Origin: Patescibacteria group bacterium
GTDB taxonomy: Bacteria; Patescibacteriota; Minisyncoccia; Phycocordibacterales; UBA9973
NCBI GenBank assembly: GCA_040384805.1
Contig: JAZKIP010000009.1
Span: 1,490-65,489 of the forward strand
Length of the DNA stretch: 64,000 nt
Reading direction: 5' to 3'
The notes beneath the pieces were generated by a model. It saw nothing but the letters and a program-made list of their open reading frames with translations. It did not search any database and was not told the DNA's origin. Positions 20,534 to 48,712 of this stretch are shown one piece after another; position 1 is the stretch's first letter, and every line of letters begins with the position of its first letter. Made by a program: the position numbers and the translations under genes.

Positions 20534-20972
20534 TGCGCAGGCTATAGCCGAACCTTGTGCTGACTGTTTCTAGAGAGGGACGGAAAGCCATTATTTGAAC
20601 ATTAGGGAATTTCCATTTGAAAGGAAAAATAAAATAGCGCAGAGACCTCCTATAATGAACCATATTATGGATAGTATTAATCTTGCCTCCTGCAATGACG
20701 ATCAAGTATGGTTCGGAATAACGCAAATCATTACAGAGTTTTTGCATGAATTCTTTCCTGACTCTCTTGATTTCTTTTCCTCCATGAGGAGGAAGGTGAG
20801 CCGCAGTTATACTGTATATAGGATTAGTTTTGTCTTTTGTTTCCGAAAAGATAAAGACCCCAATACAACAGTAAAGGTTCGGTATAACCATGGGTTTCCA
20901 TTCCTCAGGCCCGAAATGCTGGGTTGTCCATCGAGCACGTTTGGTTTTTGAAAGATCTACTTTTATAGCCAT
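20496..20972 (-). CDS. hypothetical protein
   Basis: ORF upstream of the amidohydrolase-like gene with a 38-nt overlap. No recognisable motif; an alternative + strand ORF 20595..20951 is equally uninformative. Confidence 0.3.
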   Translation of the reverse strand: MAIKVDLSKTKRARWTTQHFGPEEWKPMVIPNLYCCIGVFIFSETKDKTNPIYSITAAHLPPHGGKEIKRVRKEFMQKLCNDLRYSEPYLIVIAGGKINTIHNMVHYRRSLRYFIFPFKWKFPNVQIMAFRPSLETVSTRFGYSLRNGFRVTRFVLPK

Positions 20973-21096: not shown

Positions 21097-21187
21097 GGAC
21101 GGACAAGGCTCTAGCGAGCTTATTTATATTGTATGACCCGCCTCCGCAAAACTACGGATGGGCAGGTGCGATATAGAAGAATTTATT

Positions 21188-21532
21188 ATGACAAGATCAC
21201 TCAAAAAAGGTCCATATGTTGATCCACGGCTGATGAAGAAAATTGCCGGCAAAAAGCCTATTCAAACAGGCCCGATCAAGACATGGTCGCGCGCATGCGT
21301 TATTCACCCTGATATGGTCGGATTCGTCTTTGCAGTCCATAATGGGAAGATTTTCATAGAAGTCCTAGTAACCGAGGACATGGTGGGTCATCGTCTCGGC
21401 GAATTCGCACAGACTCGCAAGTTCGTCCGACACGGAGGAAAGATGCAGAAAGAACTTGAGCAGAAGAAGAAAGAAGCCGAAATTACCGCCGCCAAGTCCG
21501 CCAAAGCAACAACCGATACGAAAAAGAAGTAA
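21188..21532 (+). CDS. rpsS: 30S ribosomal protein S19 (Lys-rich C-terminal extension)
   Basis: [12 protein letters not shown]... S19 signature. ORF track start 21158; internal ATG at 21188 preferred. Confidence 0.9.
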
Positions 21533-27705: not shown

Positions 27706-28977
27706 ATGGAAACAGCGTGGAATAAAATAAGAGCAATATTCACCGACAAATCGCTTCGATCGCGTGTTTTGTTCGTTCTTGCCATGCTTATTCTTTTCCG
27801 GTTTCTGTCAGTAATCCCGATTCCCGGAGTTGATCCTATCAAGCTTCAGGCGTTTCTTGCCAACAATCAGTTCTTCGGCGTTCTCAATATCTTTTCCGGC
27901 GGCGGTCTTTCGCATCTCTCGATCCTCATGCTTGGCGTAGGTCCCTATATTACGGCTTCGATCATTATGCAGCTTTTGACAATCATGTCTCCGCGCCTCA
28001 AAGCCATCTATCAGGAAGAAGGCGAAGCGGGACGCAAGAAATTCAATCAATGGAGCCGCTTGCTGACTGTTCCGCTTGGAATCGTTCAGGGGTTGGCTCT
28101 TCTAGTCGTCCTTAAAGGCCAGGGAATTCTGGGAAATATCTCGAATTTTGAAATGATTGCGAACCTTGCTGTCATCGTCGGAGGAGCGCTCCTTTTGATG
28201 TGGATCGGCGAGCTCATATCTGAATTCGGCATCGGCAACGGAGTGTCTCTTATTATCTTCGCGGGAATCGTTGCCAACATCCCGACCGAAGTTTCCCAGT
28301 TCCTCTTCACCTTCGATATGGCTAATCTGCCGGTGTATATTCTTTTCCTTGCTGTCGGAATCTTGATTGTCGCAGGCGTTGTTGTTGTCACCGAAGCGGA
28401 ACGTCCGATTCCTGTGACCTATGCCAAACAGCAGAGAGGAAACACTGCCGGCGGAAGCGTTCAGACCTATCTGCCGCTACGGGTAAACCAGTCCGGCGTT
28501 ATTCCGATTATTTTCGCGCTTTCAATTCTCATGTTCCCCCAGCTTATCGGAAACGCTTTGGCAAGCGCAACAAGCCCGGTACTTCTTAGCATTTCGCGCG
28601 GGCTTCTCTGGTTTGTTGCCAATACATGGCTTTATTCTCTTGTCTACTTTATTTTTGTATTCATGTTTACATATTTCTATACAGCAGTCACTTTCGATCC
28701 TGACAAGCTGTCGACGAATCTTCAGAAAAACGGCGCCTTCATTCCCGGCATCCGACCGGGTCCTGCAACACGCGAGTATATTGCAAAGATTCTCGGCCGC
28801 ATTACACTTATGGGCGCGATATTCCTCGGCTTGATCGCCGTTCTCCCGCTTGTTATGCGCGCCATCACCGGCATTACGGCTTTCGCCCTCGGTGGTACCG
28901 CCCTCTTGATCGTCGTGTCAGTTGTTATGGATCTCATCAAGAAAATCGAAGCGCAATTATCAATGAGAGAGTATTAG
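27706..28977 (+). CDS. secY: preprotein translocase subunit SecY
   Basis: 10 TM helices with conserved SecY segments (GVGPYITASIIMQLL, GNGVSLIIFAGIV). Confidence 0.95.
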   Translation: METAWNKIRAIFTDKSLRSRVLFVLAMLILFRFLSVIPIPGVDPIKLQAFLANNQFFGVLNIFSGGGLSHLSILMLGVGPYITASIIMQLLTIMSPRLKAIYQEEGEAGRKKFNQWSRLLTVPLGIVQGLALLVVLKGQGILGNISNFEMIANLAVIVGGALLLMWIGELISEFGIGNGVSLIIFAGIVANIPTEVSQFLFTFDMANLPVYILFLAVGILIVAGVVVVTEAERPIPVTYAKQQRGNTAGGSVQTYLPLRVNQSGVIPIIFALSILMFPQLIGNALASATSPVLLSISRGLLWFVANTWLYSLVYFIFVFMFTYFYTAVTFDPDKLSTNLQKNGAFIPGIRPGPATREYIAKILGRITLMGAIFLGLIAVLPLVMRAITGITAFALGGTALLIVVSVVMDLIKKIEAQLSMREY

Positions 28978-29047: not shown

Positions 29048-29062
29048 TGTTATAATATACCT

Positions 29063-29656
29063 ATGAATACACCGCTTACATTTGTTTTCTTTGGAATCGT
29101 CGGGTCCGGCAAGGGAACCCAGGTCGAGCTTCTGCAGAAATATCTGCGTGAAAAAACCCTTAGTATTGATTTCGTTGATGCTTCGCCCGGCCTTGAATAC
29201 AGGAAGCTTATTTCAAGCGGAAGCTATACGGGAGAGCTTGTTCGGGATGCCTACAATCAGGGATATCTCCAGCCTGATTTCCTGACGGACGGCCTCTTTA
29301 CGAAAATTCTCACGGAAAAAACATCGCCATCCTCCGTCATTATGGCGGACGGGTATCCTCGCACACTCGTGCAGTCAAAAACATTCGAAGATGCGATGAT
29401 ATTTTATCGCCGGGACGATGTCCGTGTTATTTATATACAGGTAGGAAAAGAAGAAGCGACACGAAGAATGAAACTCCGTGGTCGATCCGATGATACCGAC
29501 GAAGGAATCGCGAAGCGCTTCGATGAATATGTAAATAATGTTATTCCTTCAATGAATTATTTCGAAGGCAGGCCCGGATATGCTCTTTATGTCATCAACG
29601 GGGAGCAGTCGATCGAAGACGTCCATGCTGATATTATCAAGTCTCTCGGAATCTAA
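29063..29656 (+). CDS. adk: adenylate kinase (short type, no zinc lid)
   Basis: P-loop GIVGSGKGTQ plus NMP-binding and LID remnants. Confidence 0.85.
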   Translation: MNTPLTFVFFGIVGSGKGTQVELLQKYLREKTLSIDFVDASPGLEYRKLISSGSYTGELVRDAYNQGYLQPDFLTDGLFTKILTEKTSPSSVIMADGYPRTLVQSKTFEDAMIFYRRDDVRVIYIQVGKEEATRRMKLRGRSDDTDEGIAKRFDEYVNNVIPSMNYFEGRPGYALYVINGEQSIEDVHADIIKSLGI

Positions 29657-30401: not shown

Positions 30402-31172
30402 ATGGGAGTTATCATAAAAACCAAAGAACAGATCGACATGCTGCGCGAGGGCGGAAGACGTCTCGGGGCAATTGTGGCAAAAGTAGCAGGGAAAGTAGCA
30501 CCGGGTGTGACGACGTTTGAACTTGATGAATACGCCCGCATGCTTATTCGCGATGGCGGCGATGAGCCGGCTTTTTTGAATTACAAGCCCGAAGGCCACG
30601 GCAAGCCCTTTCCGGCAGCTCTCTGCACATCGATCAATAATGAAGTTGTTCACGGGATTCCGAACAAAAATAGAATCTTGAAAGAAGGCGATATTATTTC
30701 CATTGATCTCGGGCTCAAACACAAGGGGTTCTATACCGATCACGCAATAACCGTTCCTGTCGGCATGATCTCTAAAAAAGATCGGCAGCTTCTTGATGAT
30801 ACGAAGGAAGCCCTCGATATCGGCATTTGGGCCGCGAAGAACGGCAAGACGGTTGGCGATATTGGCCATGCCATAGAATCTTTCGTCCATAAACGATATG
30901 GCATCATCAGAGAGCTGTCAGGTCATGGCGTCGGTATCTCTATTCACGAAGATCCCTATATTCCCAATTTCGGCAAGCCGGGCAAGGGACAAAAGCTTCT
31001 TCCCGGAATGGTTATCGCTATCGAACCGATGCTTGCTTTAGGCAAGGCAGATATCGTCAGTATGGCTGATGGATATACGATCAAGACCGCCGATGGATCC
31101 AGGAGCGCTCATTTTGAACATACGATCCTCATTACGGATAACGAGCCGGAAATCTTGACTATGGCGGCATAA
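30402..31172 (+). CDS. map: methionine aminopeptidase type I
   Basis: Pita-bread fold metal ligands (D..D..H..E..E context: HGIPN..., GDIISIDLG, HGVGISIHEDP, AIEPM). Confidence 0.93.
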   Translation: MGVIIKTKEQIDMLREGGRRLGAIVAKVAGKVAPGVTTFELDEYARMLIRDGGDEPAFLNYKPEGHGKPFPAALCTSINNEVVHGIPNKNRILKEGDIISIDLGLKHKGFYTDHAITVPVGMISKKDRQLLDDTKEALDIGIWAAKNGKTVGDIGHAIESFVHKRYGIIRELSGHGVGISIHEDPYIPNFGKPGKGQKLLPGMVIAIEPMLALGKADIVSMADGYTIKTADGSRSAHFEHTILITDNEPEILTMAA

Positions 31173-31229
31173 CCCCCTTCTTTAATCTTATAGATTTGAT
31201 ATACTATAAGAAGCATATTCGCAGAATGT

Positions 31230-31697
31230 ATGACAAGCACCTCCTTGAATAGAAAAACTATATTTATAAGTATCTTAACAGTAGCACTGTTTGCCCTGTC
31301 TTTTATGTCTCTTGACGCCGCCGGACTTATCCCCGACTGCAACAGGGGAACAACGGTCAATAGCGCAAAGACAGGCCTCGGGACAGCTTGCGGATTCAAC
31401 GAACTCATGGGCCTTGCCAATAAGGTCATCAGCTTCCTCCTTTTCACTATTGCCACGCCTCTTGTTGCGTTGATCGTGTGTTACGCGGGATTTCTCCTCT
31501 TAACATCGGGAGGAAGCTCTGAGAAACTGACTAAAGCCAAGCATATCTTCAAGAATGTCCTCATCGGCTATATTGTCGCCTTGGCCGCATGGCTGATCAT
31601 TCATACCATTGTCAAAACTCTCGGCTTTACCGGCGATGATTTCCTTGACGAATCGGCACAGATAGAGAATACGACTCCACTGCGAATGAGGGTATAA
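31230..31697 (+). CDS. VirB2/TrbC-like pilin-type membrane protein (putative T4SS pilin)
   Basis: Long signal peptide, a Cys pair, then two hydrophobic helices (VISFLLFTIATPLVALIVCYAGFLLL and VLIGYIVALAAWLIIHTIV). Lies directly upstream of a VirB4-like ATPase. Confidence 0.4.
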   Translation: MTSTSLNRKTIFISILTVALFALSFMSLDAAGLIPDCNRGTTVNSAKTGLGTACGFNELMGLANKVISFLLFTIATPLVALIVCYAGFLLLTSGGSSEKLTKAKHIFKNVLIGYIVALAAWLIIHTIVKTLGFTGDDFLDESAQIENTTPLRMRV

Positions 31698-31776
31698 GGA
31701 AAAAGTTTTATTGGAACAAGGTACACTCTTCCGAAAGCGCCCGAAATAATCGCGGGTTATGATATAATGTCTACTC

Positions 31777-34509
31777 ATGGAAGGTTTTAGTCTCACAAAT
31801 GCCCCGAAATTCAAGAGTCCTCAAGAGGAACTCGAATTTTTGCGTGCCCACATTGCCGAAAAGGAAAAAGCTCTCGTATCGCAGGGAGTAGAAACATCAA
31901 AAGAAGACATAGCGCATGAAATCGTGGAGGAGTACAAGCGCTATCAGCCGCAGGATGTCATGGACACGAGCGCTATTCTTGAGAATGTTCAAGCTGAAAG
32001 CCTTGTCTTGCGGCTTCATCCGGAAGAACATGATAAGAAGATGGAGGAAATGCTTGGAATATTGCTCGATAAAGGAGTGTCCAATGCTCTTTCTATCATC
32101 GGCAAGCTTAATAATCCCCATCTCGATGATGATTTTCATCGTTTCTTGGTCCAATACTTGATAAGTACTCATAAGATACCAGGATTAAAAGAGGGAACGC
32201 CCTTGTTTAAGTCTCTGGATATGAAGCTGTTTGAAATCACTCTTCCTGATCCGACCGATGACGAGAGCAATAAAAAAGGGCTCAAAGAACTTCTTTCCGC
32301 TATGGAGCAGTTTTATGCCGGAATGCACTCTGTCGGAGAGGGACGGGAGAATCGGAATCGCAATCACTTCACCCTTGAGATCGCTCTTGCCGAAGGAAGC
32401 GACCAGTTCATTTTTTATGCGGCTGTTCCCGCTTACAAGACGGATCTTTTCGAGAAGCAGCTCTTGGGAGTCCATCCGCACGCCAAGATCGTCGAGGTTC
32501 CCGATGACTACAATATTTTCTCGGAGGGAAGCGTTACTGCCGCGTCACATGCGACGCTCGCTCATCATGATGTATATCCTATCAAGCTCTATGACGCGCT
32601 TGATCATGATCCGCTCAACATCATTCTTAACGTCTTCACCAAGCTTCAAAAATCAGGGGAAGGAGCATCGATTCAATTTACCATCTGCCCCGAAGACGAT
32701 GACATCATCCGCAAATTTCACACTGTCCTTGCCGACGTTAAAAACGGCATGTCCGTGCGAACGGCATCGAGCATGACTCGCCAGTTTACCAAGGAATTCA
32801 AATCCATTGCCTCTGAAATGTTTTTTGGCGCATCAAAAAAGAAGGAGGAAAAGAAAGTCAACGACAAAGCGGTGGAAAATATCACCGAGAAGATGAAAAG
32901 CACCATCCAGGCATGCACTATACGCATTATATCCTCCGCTCAGACAAAGCTTCGCGCCGAGCAGATTCTCTCGGACCTTGAATCATCGTTTAATCAGTTC
33001 ACCGAATCGGACCGGAACGGCTTTGATTTCGTACATCCGCAAGGATCGGATCTCGCATCGCTCATCCATGCTTTTTCATATAGGACCTTCTCCCAGGATT
33101 ATTCGATGCCTCTGAATCTCAAGGAGCTTGCCACGATCTTCCACTTTCCTTATGGTATCGAAAGCTCGCCTCAGCTCAAGCAAGCGAAAGCGGGCATCGC
33201 TCCGGCTCCGATGGAAATGGGAACCCAGGGAGTCGCTCTCGGTATCAACAGCTACCGCGGCAAGGAAACCAGAGTGCACTTCGCCGAAGAAGACCGCATG
33301 CGGCATTTTTATGTTATCGGTCAGACAGGTACTGGTAAGACCACGATCATGAAAAACATGATCGCTCAGGATATCGCCGCGGGCCACGGCGTCTGTTATA
33401 TCGATCCCCATGGGACAGATATCCAGGATATTCTCAGCTACATTCCCCGGGAACGCATCGACGATGTCATTTATTTCGATCCGGCATATACGGCACGTCC
33501 CATGGGCCTTAACATGCTCGAATATGACGTTCGTTATCCCGAGCAGAAGACATTCGTCGTCAACGAGCTGATGAATATATTCAACAAGCTCTTCGACATG
33601 AAGACCTCCGGAGGTCCGATGTTCGAGCAATATTTCAAAAACTCCGCCTTTCTTGTCATGGAGCATCCTGAATCGGGATCGACTCTTCTTGAAATCAGCC
33701 GCGTTCTTTCGGATAAGGCATTCCGCGATATGAAGCTTTCCCATTGCAAGAACCCCATCATCAGGCAGTTCTGGGAGAACGCCGAACAGACGACAGGCGA
33801 TCAGGCCCTTGCCAACTTCGTGCCGTACATCACTTCGAAATTCGATAATTTCATTTCAAACGACATCATGCGCCCGGTCGTCTTGCAGGAGAAATCAGTC
33901 TTCAATTTCCGTGAGATCATGGACAGCAAGAAGATTCTTCTTGTTAATTTGTCGAAAGGACGCTTGGGAGACATCAATGCCAATCTTATCGGCATGCTTA
34001 TCGTCAACAAGATCCAGATGGCGACATTATCCCGCGTGGATATGTACGGCAAGAAAATGGAGGATTTCTTCCTCTATGTCGATGAGTTCCAGAACGTATC
34101 GACGGATTCCATCGAATCGATATTCTCCGAGGCGCGCAAATACCGGCTGTCGCTCACGGTGGCTCATCAATACATCTCCCAGCTTGAGGAGAAGATCAAG
34201 AATTCCGTCTTCGGAAACGTGGGTTCCATGGCGGTCTTCCGCGTCGGCGCCGAAGATGCGCAATTCCTCGAAAGCAAGTTTAAGCCGACATTTACTGCCG
34301 CCGATATCATGAAGATCGAGAATCGCAATGCTTATATCTCAATGCTCATCAACGGACAGCCGACAAAGCCTTTCAATATAGCGACATTTCCTCCACCCCA
34401 AGGCAATATGGCAGCAGTCGAGAAGATCAAGGAACTCTCATATCTTAAATTCGGCCGCGAGCGCGAGGAAGTCGAAGAGGAGATCATGAATAAATATAAA
34501 AAGAATTAA
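31777..34509 (+). CDS. VirB4/TrsE/ConE-like type IV secretion ATPase (FtsK/HerA superfamily) with an uncharacterised roughly 490-aa N-terminal domain
   Basis: Walker A HFYVIGQTGTGKTT...IDPHG, Walker B FLYVDEFQNV, C-terminal LSLTVAHQYISQL...VFRVGAEDAQFL resembling T4SS ATPase/TraG-D_C segments. No TM helices. Confidence 0.6.
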   Translation: MEGFSLTNAPKFKSPQEELEFLRAHIAEKEKALVSQGVETSKEDIAHEIVEEYKRYQPQDVMDTSAILENVQAESLVLRLHPEEHDKKMEEMLGILLDKGVSNALSIIGKLNNPHLDDDFHRFLVQYLISTHKIPGLKEGTPLFKSLDMKLFEITLPDPTDDESNKKGLKELLSAMEQFYAGMHSVGEGRENRNRNHFTLEIALAEGSDQFIFYAAVPAYKTDLFEKQLLGVHPHAKIVEVPDDYNIFSEGSVTAASHATLAHHDVYPIKLYDALDHDPLNIILNVFTKLQKSGEGASIQFTICPEDDDIIRKFHTVLADVKNGMSVRTASSMTRQFTKEFKSIASEMFFGASKKKEEKKVNDKAVENITEKMKSTIQACTIRIISSAQTKLRAEQILSDLESSFNQFTESDRNGFDFVHPQGSDLASLIHAFSYRTFSQDYSMPLNLKELATIFHFPYGIESSPQLKQAKAGIAPAPMEMGTQGVALGINSYRGKETRVHFAEEDRMRHFYVIGQTGTGKTTIMKNMIAQDIAAGHGVCYIDPHGTDIQDILSYIPRERIDDVIYFDPAYTARPMGLNMLEYDVRYPEQKTFVVNELMNIFNKLFDMKTSGGPMFEQYFKNSAFLVMEHPESGSTLLEISRVLSDKAFRDMKLSHCKNPIIRQFWENAEQTTGDQALANFVPYITSKFDNFISNDIMRPVVLQEKSVFNFREIMDSKKILLVNLSKGRLGDINANLIGMLIVNKIQMATLSRVDMYGKKMEDFFLYVDEFQNVSTDSIESIFSEARKYRLSLTVAHQYISQLEEKIKNSVFGNVGSMAVFRVGAEDAQFLESKFKPTFTAADIMKIENRNAYISMLINGQPTKPFNIATFPPPQGNMAAVEKIKELSYLKFGREREEVEEEIMNKYKKN

Positions 34510-35085
34510 ATGGAAGAAATCGAAGTAAAATTTTTGGATGTAAACATCGAGTCTCTGGAAAAGAAGCTTTTAGATATGGGAGCAGAAAAGATCGGGGAAA
34601 CTCTTTCTCGTATAACTTGTTTTGATTACCCGGATTATCAGTTAAGAGATAAAAATGCGTGGGTACGTCTTCGAACGGAATTTAATGAGACAACTCTTGC
34701 ATATAAAGAACGTCTTGGTGTTAGTTCTGAAGACGCTTCAATCAAGGATGATGGTATGAGAGAGATTGAAGTCGTTGTTTCTGATTTTGACACCACGAAG
34801 TCATTTCTTTTTGAAATCGGTATGATTGAAAAATTCTCGCAGGAAAAAAAGAGAATTCGTTTTAAAAAAGATACAATCGTATTTGATATAGACACGTGGC
34901 CACTTACACCGCCATATATTGAAATCGAAGGTTCATCATGGGATGACGTGAAGACTGCCGCTGAAAATCTAGGTTTTAAATACGAAGATCACTTGAGGTG
35001 TTCTGCCCACAATATATTTATTAAATATGGTTTTAATGATCATGATTATTCGGTCTTCACCTTCGCAGAGCAGATTAAAAAATAA
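34510..35085 (+). CDS. CYTH-domain protein (CyaB/thiamine-triphosphatase-like triphosphate tunnel metalloenzyme)
   Basis: EIEVKFLDVN... and the alternating acidic/basic beta-strands characteristic of CYTH. Its ATG abuts the TAA of the ATPase. Confidence 0.65.
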   Translation: MEEIEVKFLDVNIESLEKKLLDMGAEKIGETLSRITCFDYPDYQLRDKNAWVRLRTEFNETTLAYKERLGVSSEDASIKDDGMREIEVVVSDFDTTKSFLFEIGMIEKFSQEKKRIRFKKDTIVFDIDTWPLTPPYIEIEGSSWDDVKTAAENLGFKYEDHLRCSAHNIFIKYGFNDHDYSVFTFAEQIKK

Positions 35086-35157
35086 TTGCAGAGCAAGGCT
35101 TTTTCTGCTACACTGTGCCTATTACAATCACCAGAGCACAGGCTCTTTTTTATTTAT

Positions 35158-35742
35158 ATGAAGCATCCAAAAGAAGAAGTCACATATGTCATGCTGAAGC
35201 CCGACGGCGTCCGCAAAGGCCTCATTGGAGAGGTTATTAAGAGATTCGAACAGCGCGATCTGAAAATCGTCGCTCTTGAAATGTTCAATCCCGAATTCGA
35301 CAAGGTCAACGATCACTATCCGAAAAGCGAAGAATGGATCACGCGTCTCGGCAATAAAACACTCACGACATATGAAAAATACGGCTATGACGCGATGAAG
35401 GATTTCGGTACGACCGATGCTTCCAAAATCGGACCTGAAATCCGAAAATGGCTCATCGATTACATGACGTCCGCTCCGCTTGTGAAAATGATCGTCAAAG
35501 GCGTCCATGCTGTTGATGTCGTCCGCAAAGTAGCAGGGGATACGATGCCGTACAAAGCCGATATGGGCACGATTCGCGGCGATTTCTCAATCGACAGCCC
35601 CGCTCTTGCAAATATGGAGAAGCGCGCAGTTATGAACATCGTTCACTGCTCTGAGACTCCCGAAGAAGCTGAGCATGAGATCAAGCATTGGTTCGGTGCT
35701 GCCGAGATCCTCGACTACAAGCGCTTTGGTGTTGACGAATAA
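35158..35742 (+). CDS. ndk: nucleoside diphosphate kinase (with a roughly 50-aa insertion)
   Basis: TYVMLKPDGVRKGLIGEVIKRFEQ and the active-site His region NIVHCSETPEEAEHEIKHWF. ORF track start 35086; ATG at 35158 preferred. Confidence 0.8.
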   Translation: MKHPKEEVTYVMLKPDGVRKGLIGEVIKRFEQRDLKIVALEMFNPEFDKVNDHYPKSEEWITRLGNKTLTTYEKYGYDAMKDFGTTDASKIGPEIRKWLIDYMTSAPLVKMIVKGVHAVDVVRKVAGDTMPYKADMGTIRGDFSIDSPALANMEKRAVMNIVHCSETPEEAEHEIKHWFGAAEILDYKRFGVDE

Positions 35743-35751
35743 AATGAAAAA

Positions 35752-35782
35752 GCATAAAATCCGCCATCGGCGGATTTTATGC
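35752..35782 (+). terminator. hairpin GCATAAAATCCGCC-ATC-GGCGGATTTTATGC
   Basis: 14-bp perfect stem; overlaps a TGcTAGTAT -10 element at 35781..35788. Confidence 0.65.
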
Positions 35783-35796
35783 TAGTATATTTTAGT

Positions 35797-36441
35797 ATGA
35801 GAAAGATCGCCGATATATACGAAGAATACAAAATCATGCCGAATCTGCAGATACATCAATTGCGTGTCGCCGCTGTGGCAGCCAAGGTGTGCGATTCACT
35901 CGATATCCCGGTAGACAAGGACGCAATAGTAACTGCTTGTCTTTTCCACGACATGGGCAATATCATCAAATTCAAGCTCGGCTATTTCCCGGAATTTCTG
36001 GAGCCCGAGGGTCTCGACTATTGGGAAACTGTTAAAAGGGAATATATTGAAAAATATGGAGAAAATGAGCATATAGCCACGATTGCCATAGCCCGGGAGT
36101 TTGGTATCGGTGCAGATATTATAAAAAATATGGAAGCGATTGAATTTTCCAATTGGTGCGCTGTAAATGTAGATGAAAACTGGAGCCAAAAGATATGCAC
36201 CTATGCCGATGCGCGCGTCGGCGTTACGGGCATCATAAGCCTTGAGGAAAGGCTTGAAGACGGAGAAAGGCGATACAAAGGAATACATGAAGATATGGAT
36301 GCGAAAAGACTGTTCCTTCAGAATTGTATGCGCACTATCGAAAAAGAAATTTCTTCTCGTATGAAAATTGCCCCAGAAGACATTACTGACGAGTCTATCT
36401 CTCCGTATATTGAAGAACTGAAAAATTTTTCTCTCGCGTAA
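35797..36441 (+). CDS. HD-domain phosphohydrolase
   Basis: LFHDMGN (H...HD) metal-binding motif. The ATG lies 8 nt after the -10 hexamer, so the mRNA is probably leaderless. Confidence 0.6.
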   Translation: MRKIADIYEEYKIMPNLQIHQLRVAAVAAKVCDSLDIPVDKDAIVTACLFHDMGNIIKFKLGYFPEFLEPEGLDYWETVKREYIEKYGENEHIATIAIAREFGIGADIIKNMEAIEFSNWCAVNVDENWSQKICTYADARVGVTGIISLEERLEDGERRYKGIHEDMDAKRLFLQNCMRTIEKEISSRMKIAPEDITDESISPYIEELKNFSLA

Positions 36442-36853: not shown

Positions 36854-38224
36854 ATGGCAAACGATACAAACCTAAAACTGACATTCTGCTCGGGTGCGGG
36901 GACTGTCACGGGCGCAAACTTTTTATTGGAAGGGAATGGCAAGAAATTCCTCGTCGATTGCGGACTCATCCAGGGCGAAAAGCTCGCTGATGACATGAAC
37001 TGGGAGAAATTTCCTTACGATGCATCCGAAATCGATATTCTCTTTATTAGTCATGGCCATATCGACCATATCGGCCGTATTCCAAAGATCATAAGCGAAG
37101 GCTTCAAGGGGAGAATCGTCTCAACGATCCCGACTAAGGAGATCACCGAAGTTATGCTTGCCGATACTGCCCATCTTTTGTCTCGGGACACCGAGAACAA
37201 TCTCGACAAAATATACTCCGCCGAGAATATACAAAAGGCCATGAGTCTCTGGGAAACTCTCGAGTACGGGCAGAAGCTCAATGTCGACCACGGCTTTCAA
37301 TTTTCATATAAGGACGCGGGGCATATCCTCGGCTCAGGAATGCTCGAGATCGTTTATAACGGCAAGAAAATAGTTTTTACAGGCGACATCGGCAATTCGC
37401 CGTCACCTCTTCTTCCTGACCCTGATTTCATCACCGATGCTGATTACCTCGTCATGGAATCGGTGTATGGCGACCGCAATCATGAGGATCGCAGCTTGCG
37501 CAAAAAGAAGCTTGAACAGGTCATCAAGGACAACTATGCCCGTAAGGGAACATTGATGATCCCGACGTTTTCTCTTGAGCGTACGCAGGAACTTCTCTAT
37601 GAGATAGATTCTTTGGTGGAGAATAAGATCATACCCGAGATGCCGATCTTTCTCGACTCTCCTCTTGCGATCAAGCTGACAGCCGTTTATCTCAAATACG
37701 AAAGATATTTCAACGAGACTGCCAAGAAGATCATTGCCGCAGGAAACCGCCTTTTTGAATTTCCGGGATTAAAGCAAACAGAGGAGACTGAAGAATCAAA
37801 GGCAATCTTGCATGCGCCGAATCCAAAGATCATCATCGCAGGGTCAGGCATGTCCAACGGCGGCCGTATTATTCATCATGAGAAGAATTATCTGCCGGAT
37901 CCGAACAATACGATTCTCCTGATCGGGTATCAGTCAATCGGGACTCTCGGCCGGTTGATTGAAGACGGCGTGCGGGATCTTCATATTCAAGGAACTATTG
38001 TTCCTCTACGCTCGCACGTGGAAATGATCAGCGGCTATTCGGGACACAAGGATTCCGACGGTCTTGTCGAATTCGTCGGGCATACGGCTAAAACAGTCAA
38101 GAAAGTTCTGGTTGTCATGGGTGAGCCGAAATCATCCCTCTTCTTGTCTCAGAAATTGCGTGACAACCTCGGCGTGGATACGTATGCGCCTCAGGCCGGA
38201 GAAACTGTCATTCTTGAGTTTTAA
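36854..38224 (+). CDS. MBL-fold metallo-hydrolase of the beta-CASP (RNase J/CPSF-like) family
   Basis: HGHIDHIG motif, beta-CASP motifs A/B/C context and the C-terminal RNA-specificity region. Confidence 0.75.
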   Translation: MANDTNLKLTFCSGAGTVTGANFLLEGNGKKFLVDCGLIQGEKLADDMNWEKFPYDASEIDILFISHGHIDHIGRIPKIISEGFKGRIVSTIPTKEITEVMLADTAHLLSRDTENNLDKIYSAENIQKAMSLWETLEYGQKLNVDHGFQFSYKDAGHILGSGMLEIVYNGKKIVFTGDIGNSPSPLLPDPDFITDADYLVMESVYGDRNHEDRSLRKKKLEQVIKDNYARKGTLMIPTFSLERTQELLYEIDSLVENKIIPEMPIFLDSPLAIKLTAVYLKYERYFNETAKKIIAAGNRLFEFPGLKQTEETEESKAILHAPNPKIIIAGSGMSNGGRIIHHEKNYLPDPNNTILLIGYQSIGTLGRLIEDGVRDLHIQGTIVPLRSHVEMISGYSGHKDSDGLVEFVGHTAKTVKKVLVVMGEPKSSLFLSQKLRDNLGVDTYAPQAGETVILEF

Positions 38225-38225: not shown

Positions 38226-38864
38226 ATGAATTTAAAAAATACACGAACCCAATATCTCTGTTATAACGGGCCTGTCGGCGCAGGGGGAACGAACGATCAT
38301 CTGAAAATCAAGATCGGCGTTTCAGGTGCGGCTGAGACAGGCGCCTGCGGCGTACGCGCTTTCGATCAGGCACAGGAGCTTGGCCGGGAGATCATCCGGC
38401 AGGGAGGCATACTTGTGACCGGAGCGACATCGGGATTCCCGATCTGGAGCGCCATGGGTGCAAAAGAAGAGCAAGGGTTGAGCATCGGCATTTCTCCGGC
38501 TTCCAATGAGCATGAGCATATCGACGTATATAAGCTTCCGATGGAACATATGGACTTTATCATCTATACAGGTTTCGGTTTTCCGGGCAGAGATCTCCTC
38601 TTTACGCGAAGCTGCGAGGCGGTCATCGTCGGATGCGGCCGAATCGGAACTATCCACGAGTTTACGATCGCGTTTGAGGACGGCAAGCCTATCGGAATTC
38701 TTGAAGGAGAGTGGACGATGGATGAGACGATCCGCGATATCATCGCCCGCGGCAACCGTCCTAACGATAAAATTGTTTTTGATTCGGACCCTAAAGCGCT
38801 TGTGGAGAAAGTCATCGCTCTAGTGGCGAAGGATAAGGCTCAGAGAAAACTCGCTCTAAATTAA
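38226..38864 (+). CDS. SLOG/TIGR00725-like Rossmann protein (DprA/LOG-related)
   Basis: IKIGVSGAAETGA...GGILVTGATSGFP...VIVGCGRIGTIHE resemble the LOG/DprA-like fold. ATG at 38226, internal start of ORF 38064..38864. Confidence 0.5.
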   Translation: MNLKNTRTQYLCYNGPVGAGGTNDHLKIKIGVSGAAETGACGVRAFDQAQELGREIIRQGGILVTGATSGFPIWSAMGAKEEQGLSIGISPASNEHEHIDVYKLPMEHMDFIIYTGFGFPGRDLLFTRSCEAVIVGCGRIGTIHEFTIAFEDGKPIGILEGEWTMDETIRDIIARGNRPNDKIVFDSDPKALVEKVIALVAKDKAQRKLALN

Positions 38865-40133: not shown

Positions 40134-40916
40134 ATGGATCAGAAAGTGATAAACGTCTATAAAAAATCAGGTCAAACCCCTCTTGAGTGCATTCAAAAAC
40201 TCAAAAACGCCCATCTGGAACTCAGGCATGTGCCGCTTTCATACGCGGGGAGACTTGATCCTCTTGCCGAGGGTGTTCTCCTTATTCTTGTAGGAGATGA
40301 GTGTCTGAAAAAGGATGACTATCTGGCTTTGGACAAGGAATATGAGATGACTATCCTCTTCGGCTTCTCCACGGATACATATGATGTGATGGGACTAGTT
40401 GACGAGTCGAAAGAGTCGCAAGATCTGATAGAGGATATCTCGGATAAAGTCTCACATATTCTCCCGCAATTTGTGGGCCGCATCAGTCAGAAATATCCGG
40501 CATACTCATCACGAACAGTGGATAGTAAACCCCTTTTCCAATGGGCCCGCGAGGGGAAGCTTGATGAAATCGTCATACCGTCGCATGATGTCTTTATAAA
40601 AAGTATCAATATCGTCTCCTCGGGCTCCGTGTCGTCAGAGGAATTTCGCAAGAAAATACACGAAATGATCACCGCTGTCCATGGCGATTTCCGACAGGAC
40701 CAGATTCTTGGTATATGGAATAAAATCCTACGACCGCTTCCGGAAAAGGAATTTCCCGTTCTGACTCTTCGTATTGTTTCCGGAAGCGGGGTTTATGTCC
40801 GGGCACTTGCTCATGATATCGGACAGGCTCTCGGCATTCCCGCTCTTGCCCTTGGAATTGTACGTACGAGAGTAGGGGATTACCGGAATCCGGAATATCA
40901 ACAAGAGATGATATAA
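40134..40916 (+). CDS. truB: tRNA pseudouridine(55) synthase TruB-like
   Basis: YAGRLDPLAEGVLLIL catalytic Asp motif. Confidence 0.8.
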   Translation: MDQKVINVYKKSGQTPLECIQKLKNAHLELRHVPLSYAGRLDPLAEGVLLILVGDECLKKDDYLALDKEYEMTILFGFSTDTYDVMGLVDESKESQDLIEDISDKVSHILPQFVGRISQKYPAYSSRTVDSKPLFQWAREGKLDEIVIPSHDVFIKSINIVSSGSVSSEEFRKKIHEMITAVHGDFRQDQILGIWNKILRPLPEKEFPVLTLRIVSGSGVYVRALAHDIGQALGIPALALGIVRTRVGDYRNPEYQQEMI

Positions 40917-40924
40917 TTTTATGT

Positions 40925-41878
40925 ATGAAAAAAATCGTTACAATCGGCGGCGGCACCGGACACTTTGCTATTCTTTCGGGATTGAAGAATCTTCCAGATA
41001 TTTCCCTGTCTGCGATCGTAACAATGTCAGACGATGGAGGTTCGTCCGGACCGCTTCGGCATGAGCTTGGCGTATTGCCTCCGGGCGATGTCAGGCAGTG
41101 TCTCGTTGCTTTGAGCGAAAGCGATGATGTGGTGAAAACTCTCATGAACTATCGATTCCGCGAAGGCAACCTTTCGGGGCATAGTGTCGGCAATATTTTG
41201 CTTGCGGGTCTCGAAAAAGTAACGGGGAATTTCCAAAGCGGTCTTGACGTTGCGTCCGATCTTCTGAAAGTCCGGGGCACTGTTATCCCTGTCACCGATG
41301 ATAATGCCATCCTCGCGGTTTCGCTTCTCGACGGATCAGTGATTGAAGGACAGGTCAACATTGGCCGGGCACGAATCCGCGAAGTGGGGCTTGATAAGAT
41401 CTTTTATACAAGCGATGTACGCTTGTCGGAGAAGGCTCGACAGGCGATCGTCGAAGCCGACTATATTATTATCAGTCCCGGCGATTATTATGAATCGATC
41501 ATCCCTGCTCTTATTGTTGGAGGATTTAAGGAAGCTTTGTCTGCAAGCGCAGCCGCGATAGTTTTTCCGATCAATCTTACCAATAAGGAGATCCATATGA
41601 AGCATTGGAAAGCGAGCGATTATATAAAAAACATAGAAACATATCTCGGAAAACGCATTGATGTTATTTTGATCAACAGCGAAAAGCCTTCTCTCGAACA
41701 GGAGAAACAGTTCGATTTGAAAAAAGAATCGGGAATCTTGGTCGAGGATGATATAAATGACGAGCGTGCAATCCGGAAGCCTCTTCTATCTTCTCTCCTT
41801 TTTGATCATGTTCGAAGTTTCCTGCGCCATGATCCTTCGAAGTTCGCCGAGGCTGTTTCTTCCGTCATAGAAAAATAA
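40925..41878 (+). CDS. YvcK/CofD-like gluconeogenesis factor family (UPF0052)
   Basis: MKKIVTIGGGTGHFAILSGLK...DDGGSSG signature. Confidence 0.8.
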   Translation: MKKIVTIGGGTGHFAILSGLKNLPDISLSAIVTMSDDGGSSGPLRHELGVLPPGDVRQCLVALSESDDVVKTLMNYRFREGNLSGHSVGNILLAGLEKVTGNFQSGLDVASDLLKVRGTVIPVTDDNAILAVSLLDGSVIEGQVNIGRARIREVGLDKIFYTSDVRLSEKARQAIVEADYIIISPGDYYESIIPALIVGGFKEALSASAAAIVFPINLTNKEIHMKHWKASDYIKNIETYLGKRIDVILINSEKPSLEQEKQFDLKKESGILVEDDINDERAIRKPLLSSLLFDHVRSFLRHDPSKFAEAVSSVIEK

Positions 41879-45517: not shown

Positions 45518-45518
45518 T

Positions 45519-46391
45519 ATGACAAACGAGAAATTTTTCCCTACAGGAAATGAGCGCAAAAAAGTAGTAGAAGAGAATCAAAAGCAAACTGTCTCTTTTC
45601 AGGAAAAAGGCAAAAGCATGATACAAGATTCCCACTATTATACGGATGTCGATTCTCCTCTTGAAGGTTCAATGGTAGATACGGGCAATAGTTTCAGCTT
45701 TTCATTCCATGAGATAATTCCGCAGGGTTACATAAATATGCGCGACTATATTGAAAAAAATCTTGCAGAGAAAAAAGGCCACGCTGTGGGAATTGAGTTC
45801 GGAGGTCTTGGGTACAATCTTTTTGCCGGATTCGACAGGGGATTTTTTAAAAAGTCGCTTGGCGTAACTCTCGTTGACCATAGGATGGATAGCTGGAAAC
45901 AACAAGACGAAAAAATAGCAGAAGAAAAGAAATTAGATCATACCGTCGTCGAAGGGAATATTCTGTCGCCGGATTTATATAAGAACTTGGAGAAAAAGCT
46001 CGATAAGAAAAAAGCGGATCTCGTCATTGAGAGAATGTTCAGAGGTCTTGAATTCATGCCGCAGGAGCCATATGAAATAGGCAAGGTGTTGCAGAAATGG
46101 TATTCGATGCTTAATGAGAACGGAATGATGTTTGTCCAGGTGCCGGTTGTTTTCAATAATCTTCTTGAAAAATGGGGTTTGATGATTCAAAAAGGATATG
46201 GTCATGTTATAGAATTAAGATACAAGAAAGGAAAGTATGACATGGGCAGAGTGGATGATCCGTCGGTCTTCATCTTGAAAAAATTAAAAGGAGCTCCCGA
46301 GAAGCTGCCTTTCCTTGATCCGAGAACTGTTCAGGAAACGGAAAAAAATACTGATATAAATTATTATGAAAAAAGAAACACTGAAAATTAA
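45519..46391 (+). CDS. hypothetical protein, possibly a Rossmann-fold methyltransferase-like protein
   Basis: HAVGIEFGGLGYNL (motif I-like), VTLVDHRMD and ADLVIERM. Inserted between purL and purQ; 26-nt overlap with purQ. Confidence 0.4.
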   Translation: MTNEKFFPTGNERKKVVEENQKQTVSFQEKGKSMIQDSHYYTDVDSPLEGSMVDTGNSFSFSFHEIIPQGYINMRDYIEKNLAEKKGHAVGIEFGGLGYNLFAGFDRGFFKKSLGVTLVDHRMDSWKQQDEKIAEEKKLDHTVVEGNILSPDLYKNLEKKLDKKKADLVIERMFRGLEFMPQEPYEIGKVLQKWYSMLNENGMMFVQVPVVFNNLLEKWGLMIQKGYGHVIELRYKKGKYDMGRVDDPSVFILKKLKGAPEKLPFLDPRTVQETEKNTDINYYEKRNTEN

Positions 46392-47163: not shown

Positions 47164-47174
47164 ATCAAGAATAC

Positions 47175-48572: not shown

Positions 48573-48598
48573 AAATCGTAGGGTATTGGAGCAAGCAT

Positions 48599-48686: not shown

Positions 48687-48712
48687 ATGCTTGTGGAAAG
48701 AATAAATAATAT

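Follow-up and report, generated by a model that had tools for sequence, protein, structure and literature searches.

The three genes that follow map on the forward strand of the window (the whole 64-kb stretch of DNA analyzed here), encoding a VirB2-like pilin, a 910-aa ATPase, and a CYTH enzyme, appear to be three units with separate evolutionary histories and not one machine. The explanation that we favor, and consider rather likely, is that a stray pilin gene and a CYTH gene lie beside a conserved coupling-type ATPase of the T4SS family, that no compact secretion machine is encoded here, and that the ATPase acts with a T4SS. A check of the sequence located all three ORFs described in a first-pass annotation of this DNA.

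The gene map (methionine aminopeptidase; positions 30402 to 31172, + strand; Pfam Peptidase_M24 in the same-organism contig L002) is the final gene of a conserved secY-adk-kinase-map run, and 3' of it lies a variable slot, followed in the conserved order by the ATPase gene, ndk, and genes for HD, beta-CASP, and SLOG proteins. The first-pass annotation had noted that the alpha operon is missing after map, and this was borne out: none of infA, rpsM, rpsK, rpsD, rpoA, and rplQ directly follows map, and a scan of nearly all ORFs of at least 110 aa in the window turned up no alpha-operon gene. Its observation that VirB6 and VirB8 homologues are not nearby also held, as the VirB4, VirB6, and VirB8 families had no match anywhere in the window, which contains none of the channel components VirB6, VirB3, and VirB8 and no T4SS gene besides the stray pilin. 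The accompanying statement that no VirD4 homologue is nearby was incorrect, because the 910-aa ATPase is itself VirD4-like.

The pilin gene (31230 to 31697, + strand; 155 aa) was assigned from its match to Pfam PF18895 T4SS_pilin (33.8 bits, above the cutoff of 26.6), from hydropathy, and from an alignment of 42 homologues. The protein has an N-terminal signal-like hydrophobic segment (residues 8 to 35; signal peptide at approximately residues 1 to 31), two more TM-like segments (residues 62 to 97 and 105 to 134), and a pair of conserved Cys residues. The 42 homologues have in common a signal peptide of the form MKK-hydrophobic-AxA and, after it, GLVPDC...PC-DFN. The earlier description of a pilin-like protein with a signal peptide and two TM helices agrees with both the family match and the hydropathy profile. 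The NCBI call of 130 aa starts at an internal Met, which removes the signal peptide.

This pilin is a solitary copy, 79 nt upstream of the ATPase gene on the same strand, and it occupies the slot after map in this genome only. Neighborhood counts throughout refer to 87 ATPase-carrying loci from other genomes; a pilin within 4 to 10 kb of the ATPase was found in none of them, and relatives with an ATPase 79 to 86% identical also lack an adjacent pilin. The closest pilin homologues are found in four-gene pilin arrays at other loci, as in GCA_040384245.1, which has a map-ATPase-ndk locus and carries the closest homologue in such an array on a different contig. The GC contents of the pilin and ATPase genes are in line with those of neighboring genes. 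PF18895 is the family that defines the pilins of the Patescibacterial T4SS arrays (PMC10633639, PMC12102498), but the pilin here is single, lies in the slot after map, and is away from any array or virB4. It is probably a single-copy paralogue of the genes in those Patescibacterial T4SS arrays that, in this genome alone, was inserted into the variable slot separating map from the gene after it.

A putative promoter upstream of the pilin was read from the sequence as an extended -10-like box, TGATATACT (31197 to 31205, + strand), and in the closest relative (L086) the same box precedes the ATPase ATG. Between the pilin and ATPase genes, a second extended -10 element, TGATATAAT (31760 to 31768, + strand), ends 8 nt before the ATPase ATG and is the putative ATPase promoter. 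In 15 of 17 relatives, a -10 hexamer ends 6 to 9 nt upstream of the ATPase start codon, and 12 of those 15 have the TG extension. The ATPase gene is probably separately promoted, with a predicted leaderless layout.

The ATPase gene (31777 to 34509, + strand; 910 aa) encodes a protein with a TraG-D_C match above the cutoff, Walker motifs, and no TM-like segment in its hydropathy profile, in line with the initial description of a soluble ATPase with Walker A/B and TraG-D_C-like motifs in its C-terminal half. Residues 1 to 135 (31777 to 32181) form a helical domain. Residues 140 to 480 (32194 to 33216) are the DUF8128 domain and are predicted to fold like the N-terminal domain of VirB4. The P-loop motor, which belongs to the VirD4/VirB4/HerA clade, spans residues 485 to 910 (33229 to 34509) and has a helical stretch inserted at about residues 590 to 700. 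The N-terminal 490 aa, once described as having no recognizable domain, thus contain PF26449 (DUF8128; precomputed annotation) and a fused small-protein domain. Walker A (GQTGTGKT, residues 515 to 522, nt 33319 to 33342), Walker B (DEFQN, residues 769 to 773, with D769/E770 at nt 34081 to 34086), and an EARKY...HQ motif 3' of Walker B (nt 34129 to 34170) show little or no variation among 59 diverse homologues. When 17 proteins encoded at position -1 to the ATPase were used to build an HMM, it matched ATPase residues 14 to 128 (E value, 1.6e-9). This small-partner family occurs strictly at position -1, and in other Patescibacteria classes it is a separate soluble protein of ~140 aa encoded directly upstream; the partner is fused to the ATPase in 47 loci and is a separate gene in 23. 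Judging from these sequence comparisons, residues 1 to 135 are a gene fusion of the small helical partner.

Several comparisons place the ATPase with coupling proteins (T4CPs). Pfam T4CP families scored above their cutoffs, AAA_10 and CagE_TrbE_VirB had no match, and NCBIfam gave weak matches to TraD and VirD4-like CD1115. A profile of the 59 homologues searched against PDB found TrwB and DotL and no VirB4 chain, and hhalign against a Bacillus AAA_10 VirB4 returned a probability of 2.3%. At the level of sequence, then, the ATPase is of the coupling-protein type (VirD4/TraG/TrwB) and not VirB4; it is within the VirB4/VirD4 branch of FtsK-HerA ATPases and is a member of a known but uncharacterized family. 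Among the Pfam families named in the first-pass annotation, CYTH and TraG-D_C were recovered above cutoff and AAA_10 was not. Its "VirB4-like" label fails by sequence, the best matches being TrwB and DotL, but stands for the predicted N-terminal fold, which is that of the VirB4 domain contacting VirB3 and VirB8 in R388. The AF2 models had pLDDT values of 88.6 and 90.6. Structural neighbors of the ATPase also include the HerA and FtsK DNA translocases.

The ATPase also differs from both classes in its layout. VirD4/TraG/TraD, TrwB of R388, DotL, and Cag-beta have an N-terminal transmembrane domain; the ATPase lacks it, carrying instead a soluble VirB4-N-terminal-domain-like domain of ~340 aa and the fused helical partner of ~135 aa, and in Patescibacteria it is encoded without a relaxase and away from T4SS genes. 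Compared with VirB4 (TrwK of R388, PDB 7o42; Thermoanaerobacter pseudethanolicus VirB4, PDB 4ag5), it gives no sequence-profile match and is not beside VirB3, VirB6, or VirB8, and its plasmid versions coexist with a separate true VirB4. These versions, on Bacillus subtilis plasmid NZ_CP032854.1 (WP_121549396.1) and in Haladaptatus (WP_227357333.1), are soluble without a TM segment and share ~24% identity with the query across both the DUF8128-like region and the P-loop region (BLASTP E value for the Bacillus protein, 6e-39 over query residues 209 to 887). The Bacillus gene heads an operon with an abutting Replic_Relax relaxase, TcpC, TcpE, and an AAA_10 VirB4, and the haloarchaeal gene directly follows that of a weakly AAA_10-like ATPase that scores below the Pfam cutoff. 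By these alignments, the second ATPase carried by conjugative plasmids of Gram-positive bacteria and haloarchaea is a homologue of the protein studied here. TMD-less T4CPs such as TraJ of pIP501 and archaeal TraG of pKEF9 are a recognized subfamily (PMC7434980) that the ATPase resembles, as aligned here with the two plasmid homologues only. The plasmid proteins are embedded in conjugation operons, whereas the ATPase has a chromosomal gene at a fixed housekeeping locus, lacks a relaxase, and is fused to a Patescibacteria-specific partner.

The ATPase family is very widespread across Patescibacteria: 5,261 clusters at 50% identity reached an E value of ≤1e-30, over 100 clusters contain homologues 77 to 86% identical, and at least 600 stretches matched in a one-genome-per-species collection, from which 80 loci were kept (nearly all labeled Patescibacteria MAGs, several with other, probably automatic, labels). 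Among fused-type loci, map precedes the ATPase in 25 of the 42 with enough flank, and ndk, its most conserved downstream neighbor, is within 3 kb in 22 of 43 and within 200 nt in 15. The closest relative reads map-ATPase-ndk-HD. This synteny with nucleotide genes holds only for some loci of the fused (Paceibacteria) group, and at other loci the small upstream partner is the only recurring neighbor. The map-ATPase-ndk order without a pilin recurs in relatives. The first-pass annotation had listed conservation of the gene order, with the ATPase annotated as housekeeping, as a result that would count against its reading; this applies in part, as the ATPase is annotated there as T4SS type and not as housekeeping. 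The Paceibacteria neighbors (adk, ndk, HD, beta-CASP, SLOG, and CYTH) belong to nucleotide and RNA metabolism and not to the envelope.

The CYTH (triphosphate tunnel metalloenzyme) gene (34510 to 35085, + strand; 191 aa) matches PF01928 (48.4 bits; cutoff, 23.2), has an ExExK motif at residues 3 to 7, and has the Saci_0718 TTM as its closest solved structure. It shares the family match and the motif with Saci_0718 and the class IV adenylate cyclase CyaB but scores only 28.8 against NCBIfam cyaB (cutoff, 57.95), too low to assign it a specific activity. Its ATG at 34510 abuts the ATPase TAA (34507 to 34509), as first described, and in relatives the two codons overlap as TAATG; CYTH probably shares the predicted ATPase transcript. 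The abutting arrangement is found in only 3 of the 87 loci (L001, L088, and L091). CYTH is missing from the 86%-identical relative, and the ATPase-CYTH pairing does not extend to most relatives. The GC content of CYTH is 36%, versus 47 to 49% for most neighboring genes and 42% for HD.

Between CYTH and ndk, a consensus scan found a putative terminator-like hairpin, AGAGCACAGGCTCT, with a T-run (35133 to 35156, + strand); a distance of only 11 nt separates it from the likely start of ndk (ATG 35158, not TTG 35086). Pfam matches identify ndk (nucleoside diphosphate kinase; 35158 to 35742), an HD phosphohydrolase (35779 to 36441), a beta-CASP RNase (36854 to 38224), and a SLOG/LOG-like protein (about 38298 to 38864), all on the + strand. 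The last three form a conserved nucleotide/RNA-metabolism block with the same order in L001, L086, L088, L092, and L093, and in relatives as many as three divergent paralogues of CYTH occur there. CYTH is probably part of a nucleotide-metabolism block of variable content (ndk, HD, beta-CASP, SLOG, and one to three CYTH genes), and its place on the ATPase transcript here and in a few close relatives would most likely reflect tight gene packing and not a dedicated partnership.

Following the suggestions of the first-pass annotation, one can picture the pilin and ATPase as a minimal device for pilus formation, DNA uptake, or secretion that is functionally coupled to CYTH as a nucleotide-signaling partner. 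A genuine T4SS pilin immediately upstream, the abutting CYTH start, and the VirB4-like N-terminal fold (VirB4 being the pilus-biogenesis ATPase) would fit such a device, but we regard it as very unlikely: the pilin is confined to this genome while the closest relatives read map-ATPase directly, its nearest homologues are in arrays elsewhere, the ATPase has its own predicted conserved promoter, CYTH is an infrequent neighbor, and channel components are missing from the window. Comparison of the 87 loci largely refutes the three-gene module. Still less probable is an anti-phage defense pair in which a HerA/DptH-like ATPase works with CYTH as effector or signal generator; PADLOC gave a partial mad8 match (E value, 2.9e-13) and weak HerA matches, and the GC content of CYTH is deviant, but the matches cover the generic P-loop only, CYTH, HD, and SLOG have no defense-family match of weight, and CYTH is missing beside the ATPase in most relatives. 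Defense genes are usually patchy and variable, whereas this ATPase is highly conserved at a fixed housekeeping locus. Least probable of all is a remnant of an integrated conjugative element with pilin, coupling protein, and cargo, as might be suggested by the presence of homologues on Firmicutes and archaeal conjugative plasmids and by the variable slot after map; integrase, relaxase, and repeats are all absent, the pilin and ATPase match their neighbors in GC content, and the ATPase locus and promoter are common to many species and look vertically inherited.

A more serious, though still unlikely, alternative is that the ATPase is an exapted cytoplasmic motor, a coupling-protein descendant that no longer works with a T4SS and serves as a housekeeping nucleic acid translocase or remodeler, perhaps by handling chromosomes or by supplying nucleotide salvage with DNA or RNA. 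Such a role would account for the placement of its gene with adk, ndk, HD, beta-CASP RNase, SLOG, and CYTH, and it is consistent with the soluble protein, the synteny with these genes and the spc operon kept in Paceibacteria, the gyrB and gyrA genes adjoining the ATPase in a Saccharimonadia-like locus, the HerA and FtsK structural neighbors, and the very high conservation. T4CP homologues are present in 2,918 of 3,035 Patescibacteria genomes, more than have VirB4 (2,417), orphans away from virB4 are the rule, and exaptation was raised by the authors (PMC12102498); these numbers allow a T4SS-independent role. However, the nucleotide-gene synteny is limited to part of one group, the N-terminal fold is that of a domain contacting VirB3 and VirB8, the plasmid homologues are located inside conjugation operons, and the Saccharimonadia-like ATPase has a hydrophobic N-terminal segment, with a four-TM protein encoded two genes upstream, which suggests that it is membrane associated.

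That Saccharimonadia-like locus (L094) reads ComM ... membrane protein, small protein, DUF8128 ATPase of 994 aa, and gyrB, with gyrA also beside the ATPase region, and mirrors SEML1_0138-0145 of S. epibionticum. By synteny, size, and domain positions, its ATPase corresponds to SEML1_0142 (1019 aa; P-loop at 381 to 800), which was essential at all three time points, with SEML1_0141 scored GD/ES/ES (PMC10633639 supplement). The nonessential T4CP-like SEML1_0293 could be a closer relative. The essential T4SS cluster of S. epibionticum has no recognizable coupling protein (PMC10633639). Neither PMC10633639 nor PMC12102498 describes the DUF8128/VirB4-N-terminal-domain-like architecture, the small partner, its fusion, or the spc-operon-linked locus.

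Because T4SS genes other than the stray pilin are absent from the window and Patescibacterial T4CP homologues are seldom beside virB4, coupling of the ATPase to a T4SS is something that we infer. Under this preferred reading, the ATPase would oligomerize like other VirD4/VirB4/HerA motors and, as it has no membrane anchor, would dock through its VirB4-like N-terminal domain on the inner membrane platform of the chromosomal Patescibacterial T4SS, whose VirB3, VirB4, VirB6, TrsD, and pilin genes would be encoded elsewhere. The small partner domain may be a built-in adaptor or regulator, and the ATPase may spend ATP to recruit substrates to, or drive them through, the Patescibacterial T4SS.

The plus-strand genes around the ATPase run from secY (27706-28977, preceded by rplO) through adk (29063-29656), a kinase of the amino-acid-kinase fold ending at 30344, and map (30402-31172) to the pilin (31230-31697, Pfam PF18895), the ATPase (31777-34509, a P-loop domain of the type IV coupling protein [T4CP] type plus DUF8128), and the CYTH gene (34510-35085, PF01928). 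They continue with ndk (35158-35742), HD (35779-36441), beta-CASP (36854-38224), and SLOG (ending at 38864) genes, after which rplT-rpmI-infC follow on the minus strand. The first-pass annotation had described a compact T4SS-like module in the place of the alpha operon, and much of that description holds. Scanning nearly all ORFs of the 64-kb window revealed no alpha-operon genes, either after map or elsewhere, and no members of the VirB4, VirB6, or VirB8 families, in line with the VirB6 and VirB8 homologues having been reported missing nearby. Hydropathy agrees with a signal-like segment and two transmembrane (TM)-like segments in the pilin-like ORF; the ATPase is, as described, soluble, without a TM segment and with Walker A, Walker B, and EARKY/HQ motifs intact; and its TAA stop is directly followed by the CYTH ATG. 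All three genes are members of known families and are already annotated so in public records.

The rest of the window has several features of its own. The S10 operon is broken between rplB (16358-17209) and rpsS (21158-21532) by about 4 kb (17261-20972) carrying a diacylglycerol kinase gene on the plus strand and, on the minus strand, an OMP-decarboxylase-like gene, a phosphoribosyltransferase gene, and two ORFs without a Pfam match. Before the run of ribosomal-protein genes lie a 704-aa ORF without a Pfam match and a 431-aa PKD/CARDB-domain protein (9192-12662), both of which may be surface proteins, followed by a 399-aa ORF (12865-14064). A Gp49/HigB-like toxin gene and an HTH_3 antitoxin-like gene (4770-5571), a probable toxin-antitoxin pair, are located between the genes for trigger factor and inorganic pyrophosphatase. 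Patescibacteria are generally described as lacking nucleotide synthesis, and a purine operon such as the near-complete de novo operon at 42548-56422 (purL and purQ [FGAM synthase], purF, purN, purD, purK, purE, purM, purC, and purB) is unusual among them. The tmRNA gene (57422-57805) adjoins smpB (56871-57311), and ARAGORN placed at 62690-62764 a tRNA-Ile whose anticodon, TAT (UAU), is an unusual means of reading AUA in bacteria.

The pilin scored 33.8 bits against PF18895 (T4SS_pilin; cut-off, 26.6) and 14.4 bits, below the cut-off, against TrbC (PF04956), and its hydrophobic segments span residues 8-35, 62-97, and 105-134 by hydropathy. Its 42 homologues, all at 36 to 64% identity except for one entry identical to the query, share in alignment a basic-hydrophobic-AxA signal peptide, a GLVPDC...PC-DFN motif containing two conserved cysteines, and two helices. 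A cleavable signal peptide, on which the first-pass annotation had made its pilin reading depend, is thus predicted from both hydropathy and the homologue alignment. The NCBI call, at 130 aa, takes an internal Met as its start and loses the conserved signal peptide (31230-31304); the 155-aa reading is correct, since the homologues share the signal peptide of the longer form. This pilin is the sole pilin match in the window and is neither part of an array nor encoded with virB4 or other T4SS genes. Pilin arrays are a described feature of Patescibacterial T4SSs (PMC12102498; PMC10633639). Among the homologues on long contigs, the two nearest to the window pilin are found in tandem four-gene arrays at another locus altogether, downstream of gyrA, a methyltransferase gene, and a solute-binding protein gene. 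The pilin of the window is a stray copy of this known Patescibacterial family.

Gene order was compared across 87 independent loci, comprising 80 loci from different species in a genome collection together with loci from close relatives. An HMM built from 43 pilin sequences, which picks up divergent array paralogues down to E values of about 1e-5, found no pilin within the 4- to 10-kb flanks of the ATPase in any of the 87 loci, and the proposed compact pilin-ATPase module is therefore not supported. Gene order likewise speaks against placing the ATPase in a pilin/CYTH module, as relatives read map-ATPase-ndk. At the locus of the closest ATPase relative (L086; 86% identical), map is followed after 36 nt by the ATPase, ndk, and HD. 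The position between map and the ATPase is without a gene in two other related loci, L001 and L091, and is occupied by a soluble 163-aa gene in L088 and a soluble 205-aa gene in L008; both were rejected as pilin counterparts, since their products are soluble and bear no relation to the pilin. Assembly GCA_040384245.1 has its ATPase in a map-ATPase-ndk arrangement (L092), and the closest pilin homologue of that assembly is part of an array on a separate contig (L004). One or two Cys-rich paralogues of about 560 to 585 aa, starting METR(N/T)CQNC and without a Pfam match, are inserted between the kinase and map in close relatives (L001, 5753-9195; L088, 2844-4532; L091, 1468-3156) and are absent from the window.

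The gap between the pilin and the ATPase carries TGATATAAT, ending 8 nt before the ATPase ATG. Of 17 relatives, 15 have a -10 hexamer ending 6 to 9 nt ahead of the ATPase start codon, 12 of them with the TG extension. Because the -10 box is kept directly before the ATG, the ATPase probably has its own, and probably leaderless, transcription start. Upstream of the pilin, the box recurs as TGATATACT, and the same TGATATACT stands before the ATPase ATG in L086, a placement that would agree with the pilin gene having been inserted directly behind the original promoter. Genes with an extended -10 box (TGnTATAAT or TGnTATACT) ending 6 to 8 nt before the ATG include adk (29048-29065), the ATPase (31760-31779), cofD (40909-40927), and purD (49430-49447), and leaderless transcription therefore looks like a genome-wide habit rather than a peculiarity of the ATPase.

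Judged by its sequence, the CYTH protein is a genuine CYTH/TTM protein: it scored 48.4 bits against PF01928 (cut-off, 23.2), has the N-terminus M-E-E-I-E-V-K with ExExK at residues 3-7, and has Saci_0718 as its closest solved structure (E = 4e-4); its score against NCBIfam cyaB (28.8) is below the cut-off of 57.95. A CYTH HMM placed such a gene downstream of the ATPase in 5 of the 87 loci, abutting in 3, and CYTH was rejected as a conserved ATPase partner on this count. The orthologue abuts the ATPase in L001; in L088 and L091, a TAATG overlap is preceded by AAGGA. L006 and L012 have it at a greater distance downstream, and it is missing in L086, whose ATPase is 86% identical, as well as in L092, L093, L007, and L008. 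The divergent CYTH paralogues of relatives number one to three and are interspersed with ndk and HD. What remains of the suggested translational coupling is that CYTH is probably co-translated with the ATPase in the window; a dedicated partnership does not follow, because the pairing is too sporadic. A conserved linkage of the ATPase to the pilin or to CYTH is lacking.

The CYTH gene is consistently 5 to 12 GC points below the ATPase, here 36% versus 48%. Its GC3 is 31%; most neighbors have GC and GC3 values of 47 to 49% and 52 to 58%, HD is intermediate (42% and 44%), and the CYTH orthologues in L001, L088, and L091 have a GC content 5 to 7 points lower than that of their ATPase. On the 3' side of CYTH (35133-35156), a hairpin that resembles a terminator and has a T-run could be a terminator or an attenuator, a role that is uncertain because the hairpin is only 11 nt before the ndk ATG. 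The same CYTH-ndk gap (35086-35157) holds a promoter-like TTGCAG-17 nt-TACACT upstream of the hairpin, and the ndk-HD gap (35751-35783) holds a hairpin whose 15-bp stem is perfect and which is scored as a terminator on either strand.

The ATPase matches three Pfam T4CP families above their cut-offs, namely, TrwB_AAD_bind (PF10412, 27.2; cut-off, 20.5), T4SS-DNA_transf (PF02534, 25.4; cut-off, 20.1), and TraG-D_C (PF12696, 24.8; cut-off, 22), the last confirming the TraG-D_C-like motif noted earlier in the C-terminal half; DUF87 matches as well. NCBIfam gave weak matches to TraD and VirD4-like CD1115, and a profile of 59 homologues had TrwB (4.9e-7) and DotL (1.6e-6) as its top sequence matches in the PDB. 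That profile found no VirB4 chain in the PDB at an E value of ≤10, the Pfam families AAA_10 (PF12846) and CagE_TrbE_VirB (PF03135) had no match to the ATPase at an E value of ≤0.1, and hhalign of the family against a Bacillus AAA_10 VirB4 was insignificant (probability, 2.3%). With Pfam, NCBIfam, the PDB profile search, and hhalign all negative, an assignment to VirB4 by sequence was rejected. The model of the ATPase has a helical insertion at about residues 590 to 700, and 362 of 420 TrwB residues align with the model; such an insertion does not separate T4CPs from VirB4, because VirB4 C-terminal domains carry one too. The ATPase shares its nucleotide-binding-domain profile with T4CPs (VirD4/TraG/TraD) but lacks their N-terminal TM anchor, as its maximal 19-residue hydropathy is 1.16 and no window reaches 1.6. 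T4CPs without a TM domain are a recognised subfamily (PMC7434980).

The ATPase family comprises 5,261 clusters at 50% identity with an E value of ≤1e-30 and at least 600 matching stretches in the one-genome-per-species collection. Judged by record title, almost all of the 80 loci kept come from Patescibacteria MAGs, with several carrying other, probably automatic, labels. Full-length identity is 77 to 86% within the close group, and the ATPase of the window, whose contig is of the Paceibacteria/Nomurabacteria type, is 100% identical to an NCBI MAG protein. Database labels for the family are limited to "T4SS DNA-binding/conjugative transfer" and DUF8128; the family is very large, highly conserved, and uncharacterised in Patescibacteria.

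The N-terminal 490 aa, earlier described as having no recognisable domain, contain DUF8128 and a fused small-partner domain. At about 800 aa, the homologues from other Patescibacteria classes are shorter, and their alignment begins at about query residue 145. A soluble gene of about 140 aa stands strictly at -1 of these shorter ATPases in 23 loci, and its product has the C-terminal motif ...KGI..AV..A...DPYILDAFHD.L.D.LY. An HMM of these upstream proteins matches residues 14-128 of the window ATPase (E = 1.6e-9) and also the N-termini of the whole 900-aa ATPase group. The Paceibacteria ATPase is therefore a fusion with its conserved small partner, which occupies residues 1-135, and this fused form is present in 47 loci. 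Four other loci (L064, L065, L077, and L085) have a different small protein of about 150 to 166 aa directly upstream of the ATPase, ending ...W L..IPGVN.FF.EQ.AKIKT.KIL. Since the upstream proteins differ in this way, including at the Saccharimonadia-like locus L094, the small partner seems to be lineage-specific.

Residues 140-480 correspond to DUF8128 in precomputed Pfam annotation, and their AF2 model reached a pLDDT of 90.6 and a pTM of 0.90. For the full-length AF2 model (pLDDT, 88.6), the best Foldseek matches were TrwK chains over about 890 columns. On these predicted models, DUF8128 adopts the VirB4 N-terminal-domain fold, and the ATPase has a three-part architecture. The predicted protein thus shares with VirB4 an N-terminal domain joined to a C-terminal ATPase domain but not a genomic association with VirB3, VirB6, or VirB8. 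The original term "VirB4-like" is apt for the modeled architecture and not for the sequence, which points to a coupling protein. We found no description of DUF8128, its VirB4-like fold, or the fused partner in the published literature.

Homologues outside Patescibacteria were recovered by tblastn on 588 plasmids (about 24% identity over query residues 205 to 887, approximately), whose hosts include Bacillus (276 records), Streptomyces (109), Staphylococcus, Clostridium, haloarchaea, and Sulfolobus. On the Bacillus subtilis plasmid NZ_CP032854.1, an 886-aa homologue without a TM segment (BLASTP E = 6e-39) heads a conjugation operon, followed directly by a Replic_Relax relaxase and then by TcpC, TcpE, and an 848-aa AAA_10 VirB4. 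A Haladaptatus plasmid encodes a 1193-aa homologue directly after a 1039-aa ATPase with weak AAA_10 and P-loop_TraG matches, below the Pfam cut-offs. The ATPase is thus homologous to plasmid ATPases that adjoin a genuine VirB4-type ATPase, and the plasmid gene order indicates that the family takes the "second ATPase," or coupling-protein, place alongside VirB4 in those elements. Whereas the Bacillus plasmid homologue is encoded with a relaxase, neither the window nor the Patescibacteria loci examined have a relaxase or a T4SS beside the ATPase.

An abundant subgroup of the family is about 994 to 1006 aa long and 36% identical to the query. One of its members is encoded on a Saccharimonadia-like contig at locus L094, where the order is ComM ..., a four-TM protein of 121 aa, a protein of 210 aa, the ATPase, gyrB, and gyrA. 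This ATPase combines DUF8128 and T4SS-DNA_transf with an N-terminal hydrophobic segment, a feature noted together with the two preceding proteins at 5991-6996 of L094, and the 210-aa upstream protein had no detectable relation to the "LDAFHD" small partner. To our knowledge, the S. epibionticum screen is the only Tn-seq screen of a Patescibacterium, and we take K07391, the assignment of its gene SEML1_0138, to be ComM. The Tn-seq table of strain ML1 lists SEML1_0138 (K07391), SEML1_0140 (DUF2178), SEML1_0141 (139 aa), and SEML1_0142, a 1019-aa "TraM recognition domain" ATPase with its P-loop domain at residues 381-800; two minus-strand genes, SEML1_0143 and SEML1_0144, separate it from SEML1_0145 (gyrB) (PMC10633639). 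The order ComM ... small proteins, ATPase ... gyrB is common to L094 and SEML1_0138-0145. From synteny, size, and domain positions, we infer that SEML1_0142 is the counterpart of the L094 ATPase, and SEML1_0141 and SEML1_0142 look like members of the ATPase family studied here. SEML1_0142 was scored essential at all three time points and SEML1_0141 as GD/ES/ES, and SEML1_0293, another T4CP-like gene, was non-essential (PMC10633639). The essential T4SS cluster of S. epibionticum has no recognisable coupling protein, and the main text of that study discusses neither SEML1_0141 nor SEML1_0142 (PMC10633639). A likely essential relative adds to the interest of the family.

Our best guess is that the protein would serve the chromosomal Patescibacterial T4SS as a soluble ATPase for coupling or energising and would dock via its VirB4-like N-terminal domain. 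The main rival is exaptation as a T4SS-independent nucleic-acid motor, a possibility that has been raised for T4CP homologues, which occur in 2,918 of 3,035 genomes and lie near virB4 in 148 of 5,713 cases (PMC12102498). Such a motor would suit the nucleotide- and RNA-metabolism neighborhood. In the fused group, 25 of the 42 loci with sufficient flank have map upstream, 22 of 43 have ndk no more than 3 kb downstream (15 of them no more than 200 nt), and HD, beta-CASP, SLOG, and rplT-rpmI-infC commonly follow; in loci outside this group, the small upstream protein is the only recurrent neighbor. When neighbors at the related loci were clustered without supervision, the recurrent families were limited to map, adk, ndk, beta-CASP, and the small upstream protein, with no T4SS-like family among them, and ten large neighbors from 8 of the 87 loci included no Pfam T4SS family, most having no Pfam match at all. 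Two further readings are poorly supported. A HerA-type anti-phage defence system would agree with the P-loop matches returned by PADLOC, but these are partial and generic (mad8, 48 bits; HerA, 24 bits or less), and CYTH has no PADLOC match. Against a remnant of an integrated conjugative element, the locus has no integrase or relaxase and is common to many species.

Returning to the coupling or energising ATPase, we speculate on a fuller version that we consider unlikely as a whole. The DUF8128 protein would be the ATPase "missing" from the essential, relaxase-less Patescibacteria T4SS, which it would couple or energise; as a soluble coupling protein docked on the T4SS by a VirB4-type N-terminal domain in place of a membrane anchor, it would be a living intermediate linking VirB4 with VirD4. 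A dedicated small partner, fused to it in Paceibacteria, would act with it, and the epibiotic lifestyle would require it, as the Tn-seq scores of the syntenic SEML1_0141 and SEML1_0142 suggest.

Overall, the finding as first stated is not a new machine, and its remaining interest lies in the ATPase family, to which the present analysis adds the predicted VirB4-like fold of DUF8128, the small partner fused in Paceibacteria, and the plasmid homologues beside a VirB4-type ATPase. The ATPase is thus a concrete candidate for the missing ATPase partner and for how the relaxase-less Patescibacterial T4SS is energised.
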